IMG/VR virus record: IMGVR_UViG_3300026484_000295 | Span: 32,001-96,000 of that record | DNA: 64,000 nt | Reading direction: 5' to 3' (one strand) | Origin: a virus | Shown: in pieces, positions 11,899 to 13,461 of the stretch | How the letters are laid out: each line of letters begins with the position of its first letter | How positions within the stretch are numbered: the stretch's first letter is position 1 | The notes under the pieces: model-generated | What the model was told of the DNA's origin: nothing | The model's database searches: none | The model's input: only the letters and a program-made list of their open reading frames with translations | Translations under genes and position numbers: made by a program

Positions 11899-11925
11899 TT
11901 AAGTTTTTTGCACTATAACCGATAT
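11899..11925 (+). promoter_or_regulatory. Putative sigma28 (FliA) promoter
   Basis: TTAA-N15-ACCGATAT, 100 nt upstream of the flagellin ATG; compare the TAAA-N15-GCCGATAA consensus. Confidence 0.65.
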
Positions 11926-11986
11926 TGTAATTGTAAGAGAAATATATTCTTTATTATATCATATTTCTCTTTAAATAAAACTTAAA

Positions 11987-12023
11987 TGGAAAAGGAAATT
12001 CCACTTTACACAATGGAGGTGTA
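11987..12023 (+). promoter_or_regulatory. Two GGA-loop hairpins, putative CsrA-binding sites in the flagellin 5' UTR
   Basis: TGGAA-AAGGAAA-TTCCA (11987-12003) and TACAC-AATGGAG-GTGTA (12007-12023). The second contains the SD. Confidence 0.65.
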
Positions 12024-12025
12024 TT

Positions 12026-12829
12026 ATGTTTAATTTAGGACAAGCTCAATCAATTTTAGGAATTAACAATTCAAACGATCATATTTATAGATTGAATGAA
12101 CAGTTACAAACAGGTAAAAGAATCAACAAAGCAGCTGATGATGCTTCTGGGATGGCAATCGCAAATCAATTAAGATCACAAGCAAATGGTCTGGGACAAG
12201 CAATTAGAAATTCTAATGAAGCTATTTCATTAACAAATATTGCGGATGGTGCATTAGAAGAATATACAAAAATTATTATGGAAGTTAGAGATAAAGCTGC
12301 ACAAGCTATTTCAGATTCAAACTCTACTGAGTCTAGAACAGCACTTCAAAATGATATTAATGAATTAATTAAATCAGCTGAAGCTATAGCAAACGACACA
12401 TCATATAACGGTATTAAACTGTTAGACGGCACATTTACAAATAAAGTATTCCAAACTGGTGCATATAGTGGACAAACAACTTCAATCTCAATTTCAAGTA
12501 CTAAAACTGCTGATTTAGGTATCGATGGATTAACTGTTGATAGTGCTACAAACGCAGCAACTGCGTTAGATGATATTGATGCAGCATTGAAATCATTAGA
12601 TGGAATTAGAAGTGGTATTGGTTCTGTAACACAAGGTCTTGAATCAAAAGTTAGAAATATGGAAGCAACACAACAAAATGTTTTAGCAGCAGAATCTAAT
12701 ATTAGAGATGTTGATGAAGCAGCTGCAAAAGCAGAATTAGATAATTGGACAGTAAGAAATCAAGCATCAATGTTTGCATTTCAAATGGCTGCAAGACAGC
12801 AACAAAATATTTTAAGATTATTCCAATAA
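12026..12829 (+). CDS. Minimal flagellin (D0/D1 only)
   Basis: TGKRINKAADDASGMAIANQLRSQ, TSYNGIKLLDG, FQTGA, AAESNIRDVD and QNILRLFQ; 267 aa. Confidence 0.95.
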   Translation: MFNLGQAQSILGINNSNDHIYRLNEQLQTGKRINKAADDASGMAIANQLRSQANGLGQAIRNSNEAISLTNIADGALEEYTKIIMEVRDKAAQAISDSNSTESRTALQNDINELIKSAEAIANDTSYNGIKLLDGTFTNKVFQTGAYSGQTTSISISSTKTADLGIDGLTVDSATNAATALDDIDAALKSLDGIRSGIGSVTQGLESKVRNMEATQQNVLAAESNIRDVDEAAAKAELDNWTVRNQASMFAFQMAARQQQNILRLFQ

Positions 12830-12832
12830 TTA

Positions 12833-12863
12833 TTTAGGACGGGGTTAATAACCCCGTCCTAAA
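12833..12863 (+). terminator. Strong GC-rich hairpin after flagellin
   Basis: TTTAGGACGGGGTT-AAT-AACCCCGTCCTAAA perfect inverted repeat, with no U-tract on the + strand. Confidence 0.6.
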
Positions 12864-12883
12864 ATACAAATAGGAGAATTATT

Positions 12884-13150
12884 ATGGGTGAATATGCAAA
12901 TAGTGTCGACAGTTTTTTAATACTATTTTACAACCAGTTATCAAAAAAAATGAGCGAACTAAAATCAATTAAAAATATTAAAGAAAGAGAAGAATTAAAA
13001 TCCAAAATGTTGGAAGCTTTAGATATGCTTACAATGAGTGCACAAGATGAAAAATTTAAAAATTTTTCAGAATTTTTGGCAACCAAAATCATTTTAAATA
13101 AATTTGATGAAGTAAAAGAAATATGTGATACTGTTAAACAAGGAGTTTAA
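12884..13150 (+). CDS. FliS-like flagellin chaperone (shortened)
   Basis: Helical pattern FLILFYNQL...KSKMLEALDML...KFDEVKEICDTVKQG resembles FliS. The gene lies between flagellin and flaG. Confidence 0.55.
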   Translation: MGEYANSVDSFLILFYNQLSKKMSELKSIKNIKEREELKSKMLEALDMLTMSAQDEKFKNFSEFLATKIILNKFDEVKEICDTVKQGV

Positions 13151-13152
13151 TC

Positions 13153-13461
13153 ATGATAGATTCAATCGGAAAAATTAATCAAACGTTCAATATTCAAGCA
13201 CAAAGCAAAGTAAATATTCAACCGGAACAAAAAGCGGATTTGAGCAATTTAAATAATGAAATTCAAACAATCAATGAATTAGTTGAAAATAAAAATATCA
13301 AAGTGGAATTAAATGAAGATATTAATATGATACAAGTCAAAGAATTAGATAAAACAGGGGAAATAGTTTTAAAATCTATTCCACCTGAAGATTTTATAAA
13401 AAGGGTAAAATATTTCAAAGAAAATATATTACCAACTCTAATGATGGATGAAAGGGTCTAA
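13153..13461 (+). CDS. flaG: FlaG-family flagellar protein
   Basis: VKELDKTGEIVLKSIPPEDF...LMMDERV matches the FlaG 'D-TGEVIRQIPPEE' signature. Confidence 0.8.
   Translation: MIDSIGKINQTFNIQAQSKVNIQPEQKADLSNLNNEIQTINELVENKNIKVELNEDINMIQVKELDKTGEIVLKSIPPEDFIKRVKYFKENILPTLMMDERV

Follow-up and report, generated by a model that had tools for sequence, protein, structure and literature searches.

Only one phage-encoded flagellin has been studied so far, and it belongs to a temperate enterobacterial system: in the Enterobacter prophage FRphi, the flagellin FliCP acts together with TldR to remodel the flagella of the host, and FliCP is assembled into filaments (Wiegand et al. 2024; Walker et al. 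2026, PMC13418256). In addition, two FlaA, a FlaG and a CheY have been annotated in the 339-kb Nitrosospira jumbo phage roc1 (preprint 2026, 10.64898/2026.05.02.722434). Among cellular systems, Campylobacter jejuni FlaG antagonises the docking of FliS-flagellin complexes on FlhA and is itself secreted, its last six residues (116–121) forming the predicted FlhA-docking strand (PMC11536152). Here, we describe a three-gene cassette for a minimal flagellin, an 88-amino-acid (aa) candidate flagellin chaperone and a FlaG homologue in a stretch of 64,000 nucleotides (nt), hereafter the window, that covers positions 32,001–96,000 of the IMG/VR virus record IMGVR_UViG_3300026484_000295. The record comprises 172,404 bp, is classed as linear and is approximately 61% complete; all genome-wide negative results reported below cover these 172 kb. 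Its source is a large T4-like phage, probably with a Campylobacterota host, a jumbo myovirus that is apparently lytic. An initial annotation, made from the sequence alone, knew of no described phage system comparable to this cassette, a statement that FRphi FliCP and the roc1 annotation supersede. We put the probability that the cassette is a phage module that takes over the host flagellar filament pathway at roughly 0.5.

The three open reading frames (ORFs) lie on the same (+) strand and span window positions 12026–13461 in the order flagellin, 88-aa ORF and FlaG. Their phage context, already proposed in the initial annotation, is borne out by PHROG matches in the record to tail sheath, baseplate wedge, tail tube and virion structural proteins; the record also contains tail-fibre-like paralogues, ribonucleotide reductase and homing endonucleases. 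Pfam searches of the record returned no match to FliS, FliD_C, Flg_bb_rod, FlgM, FliW or CsrA. The empty FliD_C and Flg_bb_rod searches agree with the earlier observation, made on the window, that no other filament, hook or basal-body genes accompany the cassette, and extend it to the full record.

The first gene (12026–12829, + strand) encodes a 267-aa flagellin consisting of the D0 and D1 domains only, as assigned from Pfam, NCBIfam, AlphaFold2 (AF2) modeling, Foldseek and phylogeny. Both Pfam domains scored well above their gathering cut-offs, with 130.5 bits versus 26.6 for Flagellin_N (PF00669; E = 5.7e-38) and 58.2 bits versus 23 for Flagellin_C (PF00700; E = 1e-15). The best NCBIfam matches were the Helicobacter/Campylobacter flagellin A/B families, which stayed below their cut-offs only because the phage protein lacks the central domains. 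An assignment of this ORF as FlgL was rejected, as the NCBIfam flagellin families scored far above FlgL. The AF2 model (predicted local distance difference test score, pLDDT, of 84) consisted of D0/D1 helices (residues 4–29, 36–96, 101–124, 174–227 and 231–266) and a D1 beta-hairpin, and nothing else. Foldseek matched this model to the Kurthia filament flagellin 6t17 with a template modeling (TM) score of 0.86 (E = 5e-18), and to filament-forming short flagellins, Shewanella FlaA among them, with TM scores of 0.83–0.87. The C-terminus, QQNILRLFQ, resembles the Campylobacterota sequence QQNVLRLLQ. With both Pfam domains over their cut-offs and a D0/D1 fold recovered by AF2 and Foldseek, the flagellin identity given in the initial annotation stands.

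We then asked how this flagellin relates to those of cells and of other phages. A search of 5.8 billion proteins recovered approximately 60 proteins of 267–269 aa in public assemblies (55–91% identity), many of them on contigs of 150–496 kb. A tree of 64 flagellins gave the 267-aa clade a support of 98, and its grouping with a 274-aa sister clade, carried by the T4-like contigs L010 and L042, a support of 99. The combined group contained no flagellin from a cellular genome and was nested among Campylobacterota and Thermodesulfobacteriota flagellins. On this phylogenetic evidence, the 267-aa clade is found only on phage-like contigs. A 449-aa protein with an inserted Flagellin_IN domain (P0074, on a 53.5-kb contig) also fell inside the 267-aa clade, on a long branch. 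Across one genome per species for 185,579 species, the best full-length identity among the matches listed was 47% (a Desulfurivibrionaceae metagenome-assembled genome), and Campylobacterales flagellins among those matches reached 55–60% over the N-terminal part only; the 5.8-billion-protein search agreed on the lack of a closer cellular flagellin. Among the matches listed, there was no near-identical host locus. In 50,697 GenBank phage records, blastn and tblastn searches detected no related cassette, returning only nine weak matches (≤37% identity), mostly to small unannotated fragments.

Our survey of related phages showed that the cassette recurs in several large phage contigs. A 290-kb contig from JGI has the gene order DnaJ, flagellin, an ORF of ~95 aa, FlaG, NMN adenylyltransferase (NMNAT), CCA-adding enzyme and CheY, as do assemblies of the same phage from ENA and Logan; this order is also present in an NCBI contig of 496 kb and in another JGI contig. 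The backbones around the cassette can be very different. That of contig L040 has a GC content of 18.5% and encodes DNA polymerase III alpha, an FtsH-like protease, giant leucine-rich-repeat proteins and, near the cassette, a FlgM homologue, and that of L041 encodes gyrase B, SmpB and RecA. The flagellins of L040 and L041 are 65–69% identical to that of the source phage, whereas their other genes are at most 31% identical or undetectable. A chimera is ruled out by the presence of the same junctions in independent assemblies and by the occurrence of the cassette in three or more unrelated backbones of huge phages. Separately, the FlgM (anti-sigma-28) homologue of L040 (70 aa, 4323–4535, − strand) is located ~5.5 kb upstream of the flagellin/~95-aa/FlaG cassette of that contig, and five further IMG/VR contigs of 100–329 kb (L014, L019, L024, L028 and L030) carry flagellins of 30–37% identity that have no detectable neighbor of the 88-aa family or FlaG.

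The closest relative, L004, allowed us to estimate the selection acting on each gene. While its backbone genes are 90–99% identical to those of the source phage, identity was 91% for the flagellin, 45–49% for the 88-aa ORF, 54–62% for FlaG and 62–64% for CheY, with ratios of nonsynonymous to synonymous divergence (dN/dS) of 0.06, 0.37, 0.26 and 0.36, respectively. All three cassette genes are therefore under purifying selection, which is strong on the flagellin. Synonymous divergence (dS) in the cassette (window 12026–13461 versus L004) was 0.85–1.5, two to four times that of the backbone (0.23–0.48), suggesting that related phages have exchanged the module by recombination. The GC content of the 88-aa and FlaG genes tracks that of each backbone, down to 15–18% in L040, which argues for long residence in each of them.

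Upstream of the flagellin gene, approximately 100 nt 5′ of its ATG, we identified a sigma-28 (FliA)-type promoter at 11900–11925 (+ strand), TAAGTTTT-N-ACCGATAT, of the form TAAG-N15-CCGATAT. The full element, TAAGTTTTTTGCACTATAACCGATAT, conforms to the late flagellar sigma-28 pattern TAAA-N15-(C)CGATwt and is the sole strict match to TAAR-N14-16-CCGATAW on either strand of the record. In all six phage loci (6/6), which lie in backbones that include unrelated ones, a sigma-28-type motif has been kept upstream of the flagellin, although the intergenic spacer otherwise diverges. The flagellin genes of Helicobacter, Sulfurimonas and other cellular Campylobacterales that we compared carry TAAA-N15-16-(C)CGAT[AT]T 50–110 nt upstream, and the −10 element of C. 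jejuni sigma-28 is CGATwt (PMC4626219). The phage flagellin promoter thus appears to be of the host-type sigma-28 class and would presumably be read by FliA. No sigma-70-family gene was found in the record.

Two further elements frame the flagellin coding region. Within the 5′ untranslated region (UTR), RNA folding placed two small hairpins with GGA motifs at 11987–12023 (+ strand): hairpin 1 (11987–12003) has the loop AAGGAAA, and hairpin 2 (12007–12023), with the loop AAUGGAG, covers the Shine-Dalgarno sequence. The folding z-score was only −1.1. Contig L002 keeps the loop AAGGAA of hairpin 1, and manual realignment of the stem indicated one compensatory change, from an A-U to a C-G pair, although a covariation tool scored this pair (columns 62:70) as broken; in the more distant loci L039–L041 the hairpin was not present, so that it is confined to the closest relatives. 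This layout, which we take to recall the two-site CsrA arrangement of Bacillus subtilis hag and C. jejuni flaA, resembles that of CsrA sites and hints faintly that CsrA might bind here. Directly 3′ of the flagellin stop codon, a perfect 14-bp stem-loop (12833–12863, + strand) may act as a terminator, an attenuator or a stabilizer of the mRNA. Non-homologous hairpins occupy the matching post-stop position in 6/6 phage loci, followed by a T-run in L004 and L040.

The second gene (12884–13150, + strand) encodes an 88-aa protein with no match in Pfam, PHROG, NCBIfam or the sequences of the Protein Data Bank (PDB). Its AF2 model (pLDDT 86.8) is a four-helix bundle. When this model was compared with 48,161 chains using VIA-align, FliS structures ranked first (5xef, Z = 12.4, a value that according to the tool's own warning lies within the range reachable by helical bundles by chance), second (3iqc, Z = 10.5) and fourth (1orj, Z = 9.5). 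The alignment with 5xef covered 87 of 88 residues at a root-mean-square deviation (rmsd) of 2.3 Å, and FliS structures overall aligned over 83–87 of the 88 residues at an rmsd of 1.9–2.3 Å. The top of the Foldseek list was likewise FliS (5maw_E, 6lea_A, 5xef, 3k1i and 3iqc), with TM scores of 0.71–0.76, but E-values of 0.2–1.5.

Sequence comparisons told a different story. A FliS (PF02561) search of the record gave nothing at E ≤ 1; Pfam searches with 40 family members of the 88-aa protein listed 25 families, with no FliS among them; PDB profile searches with 6 and with 40 sequences of the family found no FliS; and hhalign of the family against Campylobacterales FliS returned a probability of 0.1–0.2%. 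Alignment with the ~90-aa ORF that follows fliS in Campylobacterales, in a FliT-like position, also yielded nothing. A profile search of 1.84 billion representatives retrieved 41 clusters of the family, all of 55–125 aa and therefore without longer or fused forms, and in 401 Campylobacterota genomes the family hidden Markov model (HMM) produced only marginal matches inside large unrelated ORFs. At each phage-clade locus, the same HMM matched the ORF adjoining the flagellin; L010 and L042 have this ORF on the strand opposite to the flagellin gene. The family has also kept a near-invariant N-terminal tyrosine; in FliS, Tyr10 of the N-terminal helix is an essential contact with FlhA (PMC5932034). 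A complex prediction for flagellin residues 181–267 with the 88-aa family gave "no answer" (score 0.06) and counts neither for nor against binding. Of the label "shortened FliS-like" in the initial annotation, the fold was thus recovered by VIA-align and Foldseek, while membership of the FliS sequence family failed in all profile tests. We regard the modeled protein as a candidate flagellin chaperone that is FliS-like by fold and linkage rather than a demonstrated member of the FliS family.

The third gene (13153–13461, + strand) starts 2 nt after the 88-aa ORF and encodes a FlaG homologue of 102 aa. It matched Pfam FlaG (PF03646) with 31 bits versus a cut-off of 23.8, and hhalign against five Campylobacterales FlaG proteins gave a probability of 96% (E = 3e-9), confirming the FlaG assignment of the initial annotation. 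Its C-terminus, L-M-M-D-E-R-V, is similar in pattern to the cellular G-I-L-F-D-x-K-G, and this hydrophobic-hydrophobic-D-x-K/R-x pattern at the extreme C-terminus is the best-conserved part of the phage FlaGs. The gene overlaps a convergent downstream phage gene by 4 nt.

At a distance of 2.5 kb from the cassette, the phage encodes a stand-alone CheY of 119 aa (gene 15985–16344, with its promoter 15957–16344, + strand; Pfam Response_reg 5e-30, NCBIfam CheY 2.6e-34) with the signatures DWNMPNMDG and VVKPF. Unlike the flagellin gene with its sigma-28-type promoter, this neighbor is preceded, 21 nt upstream, by a T4-type late promoter, TATAAATA; across the record, 25 gene starts have this motif in the 60 nt preceding them. 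The protein is mostly 62–69% identical to Campylobacterota CheY, with a match in 151 of 151 genomes searched. Its gene is syntenic in L002, L004 and L039, and the protein shares more identity with the CheY of L002 and L039 (71–76%) than with its counterpart in the nearest phage, L004 (62%), a pattern suggestive of exchange. The close relative L039 also carries, besides CheY and ~5 kb from its cassette, an 832-aa hybrid sensor kinase with PAS, HisKA, HATPase and REC domains (2557–5055, + strand).

Several of these features converge on the host. A member of the Campylobacterota is likely, because of the placement of the flagellin in the tree and its family matches, the LRL(L/F)Q C-terminus and the promoter type, and because of the identity of CheY to its Campylobacterota counterparts and a GC content of 27%.

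Together, these data favor a reading in which the host flagellar type III system exports the phage flagellin, which becomes part of the filament, and in which the phage FlaG modulates FlhA; to this reading we likewise assign a probability of about 0.5. We consider this reading the best because of the conserved sigma-28-type promoter, the intact D0/D1 fold, the strong purifying selection, the always-adjacent FliS-fold partner and the presence of a FlaG homologue from a family that acts on FlhA (PMC11536152); the retention of the cassette in very different backbones and the FliCP precedent (PMC13418256) lend further support. The proposal in the initial annotation that the phage feeds its own flagellin into host export is accordingly supported in part, by promoter, fold, selection, linkage and FlaG, and not by membership of the chaperone in the FliS sequence family. 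What we infer comprises the use of FliA, binding by the chaperone, export, incorporation and the pay-off. Once the hook-basal bodies of a motile host cell are complete and sigma-28 is free, the FliA-containing host RNA polymerase would transcribe the phage flagellin gene, and the hairpin behind it would favor plentiful flagellin mRNA while letting part of the transcription continue into the two small genes. The 88-aa FliS-fold protein would hold the C-terminal D0 of the flagellin and deliver it to the FlhA ring of the host type III export gate; once exported, the flagellin would polymerize on the host filament, the bare D0/D1 subunit adding to or replacing host flagellin. The phage FlaG would bind FlhA via its conserved C-terminal strand and damp the delivery of host FliS-flagellin, shifting export or limiting filament length, and the late-expressed CheY could separately bias motor switching. 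The pay-off might be an infected cell that stays motile after host gene shut-off, or an altered filament surface for flagellum-binding phages; superinfection exclusion, jamming of the filament and a saving of energy were possible gains put forward in the initial annotation.

A more far-reaching version of this scheme is conceivable, if somewhat doubtful. Here, a mobile, phage-specific cassette common to unrelated huge phages would fire at the sigma-28 checkpoint only in cells with finished hook-basal bodies; a new, short FliS-like chaperone would load phage-clade flagellin on FlhA, and FlaG would displace host FliS-flagellin, so that bare phage subunits would make up the rebuilt filament. Helped by the late CheY, the phage would steer the swimming virocell or mask the flagellar receptor.

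A number of observations weigh against export and incorporation of the phage flagellin. The first ~20 residues of the protein, MFNLGQAQSILGINN, differ from the canonical MGFRINTNVAAL and are four residues shorter. Members of the 267-aa clade start with MF(N/S)(L/V)(G/S)QA and depart from the canonical N-terminus M-x-F/L-x-I-N-T-N, which the 274-aa sister clade retains, and the N-terminal D0 is the most variable segment within the 267-aa clade. Such variability is unusual for a polymerizing flagellin and could affect export or packing. As for the chaperone, its top VIA-align score lies within reach of chance and no profile route relates it to FliS in sequence. FlaG would be expected to hinder the export of the phage flagellin too, unless the phage chaperone escapes it. 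Finally, the host is a prediction from sequence, and since the record covers only ~61% of the genome, the remainder might contain a phage sigma factor or additional flagellar genes.

The divergent, shortened and variable N-terminal D0 would also suit a module that shuts flagellar export down: a flagellin with an altered D0 would block the export gate or the filament tip and FlaG would close FlhA to host flagellin, stopping costly secretion and freeing resources for the phage. FlaG is known to restrain the delivery of flagellin (PMC11536152), and sigma-28 control would target exactly those cells that export flagellin. We nevertheless judge this explanation unlikely, given that a whole flagellin with a dN/dS of 0.06 over D1 and the C-terminal D0, plus a chaperone-like partner, exceeds the needs of a plug, that the 274-aa sister flagellins on viral contigs keep the canonical N-terminus, and that FlaG alone would be enough to reduce export. 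Distinctly unlikely, in our view, is a cytoplasmic decoy, in which the flagellin protein, and possibly its GGA-containing 5′ UTR, would titrate FliW, FliS or CsrA and thereby rewire the CsrA network and host flagellin translation without assembly. The hairpins displaying AAGGAA and a GGA-containing Shine-Dalgarno sequence would fit such a role, as would the conservation of the C-terminal flagellin region, which is bound by FliW and FliS, and CsrA-linked flagellin regulation has been noted in phage-related loci (PMC13418256). However, the hairpin is limited to the closest relatives and has a folding z-score of −1.1, the phage record contains no detectable FliW or CsrA gene, and a decoy would need neither a complete D1 nor its own chaperone-like partner nor FlaG.

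Flagellins consisting of D0 and D1 can self-assemble in vitro, and the cassette is ~4.5 kb away from a block of tail-fibre-like genes (17980–25350); one might thus imagine that the flagellin polymerizes in the cytoplasm into a fibre of the phage particle, for example an adsorption appendage, with the 88-aa protein preventing premature assembly. This strikes us as quite improbable: the promoter is of the host sigma-28 type and not of the TATAAATA late type, FlaG has no role in such a model, and the neighbors of the cassette in other backbones are replication and regulatory genes. The last explanation, an artefact or passenger, that is, a chimeric assembly or functionless, recently captured host DNA, could draw on the metagenomic origin of a linear contig that is ~61% complete, and is refuted in practice. 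A chimeric assembly was rejected on the basis of identical junctions in independent JGI, ENA, Logan and NCBI assemblies. Recent capture from a host was rejected in view of the 47% identity of the closest full-length cellular flagellin among the matches listed from the 185,579 species genomes, and of purifying selection on all three genes, with FlaG moreover overlapping a convergent phage gene by 4 nt. Export and incorporation of the phage flagellin into the host filament remains the reading that we prefer.

The flanks of the cassette comprise a full DnaJ (J domain, zinc finger and C-terminal domain; 10856–11863), a split DNA polymerase represented by its C-terminal part, an archaeal-type NMN adenylyltransferase-like gene (13458–14225), a CCA-adding enzyme (14665–15903) and the stand-alone CheY; the DnaJ, NMNAT-like and CCA-adding enzyme genes are all on the − strand. 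The family-B DNA polymerase part (9177–10331, + strand; PHROG DNA polymerase) starts with an intein C-fragment, as suggested by a weak Pfam Intein_splicing match, and is conserved in L002, L004 and L039. The tail-fibre-like block (− strand) contains three larger ORFs (539, 690 and 546 aa) with a common N-terminal "virion structural protein" domain; these paralogues are 34–37% identical, and each is paired with an ORF of ~200–215 aa. Seven tRNA genes are grouped at genome positions 3.5–7.1 kb (L032).

If the preferred reading is correct, lytic-looking jumbo phages of environmental, probably sulfur-cycling, Campylobacterota would reprogram the most expensive organelle of their host by a logic different from that of the enterobacterial prophage. 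They appear to borrow the sigma-28 checkpoint of the host and, where the prophage uses a repressor, to supply a chaperone and an export-gate antagonist. The cassette provides a compact set of three proteins for studying substrate competition at FlhA, as well as a new family of small proteins whose modeled fold is FliS-like, and it is a possible case of a virus that maintains or steers the motility of the infected cell.

Like the flaG-fliD-fliS filament operons of cellular Campylobacterota, the phage cassette encodes a homologous FlaG, with a similar C-terminal pattern, and has a sigma-28-type promoter in front of its flagellin gene; the Helicobacter/Campylobacter families are the nearest to its flagellin D0/D1. 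In contrast to these operons, it runs in the order flagellin, 88-aa ORF and FlaG and lacks the FliD cap, and the place of FliS is taken by a phage-borne protein that is 30–40 residues shorter. This protein shares with FliS (5xef, 3iqc, 1orj, 5maw, 6lea) the antiparallel four-helix bundle, a flagellin-adjacent gene and a conserved N-terminal tyrosine, and differs from it in its length, 88–97 aa across the phage family versus ~120–135 aa, and in the lack of a Pfam FliS match.

With respect to phage systems, roc1 is likewise a jumbo phage with flagellar filament and chemotaxis genes, known at the level of annotation only; its host is a betaproteobacterium, and it lists FliI, FliJ, CheR and a chemoreceptor, which did not turn up here, where no specific search for them was made. 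FRphi also encodes a flagellin divergent from those of its host, and for FRphi it has been shown that this flagellin is incorporated into the host filament and alters its properties. FRphi is a temperate siphovirus of enterobacteria whose flagellin has enlarged outer domains, whereas the flagellin described here, from a T4-like jumbo myovirus, has none. FRphi silences host fliC through TldR, an RNA-guided repressor derived from TnpB (nuclease-dead TnpB); no TnpB/TldR domain (PF07282) was detected in the present record, in which the flagellin is accompanied by a FliS-fold protein, FlaG, a sigma-28 promoter and CheY, and has DnaJ, NMNAT and the CCA-adding enzyme as neighbors. Newly described here are a flagellin clade restricted to phage-like contigs that unrelated huge phages have in common, its sigma-28 wiring, a FliS-fold protein family, and an arrangement in which FlaG and CheY, not a repressor, are paired with the flagellin.

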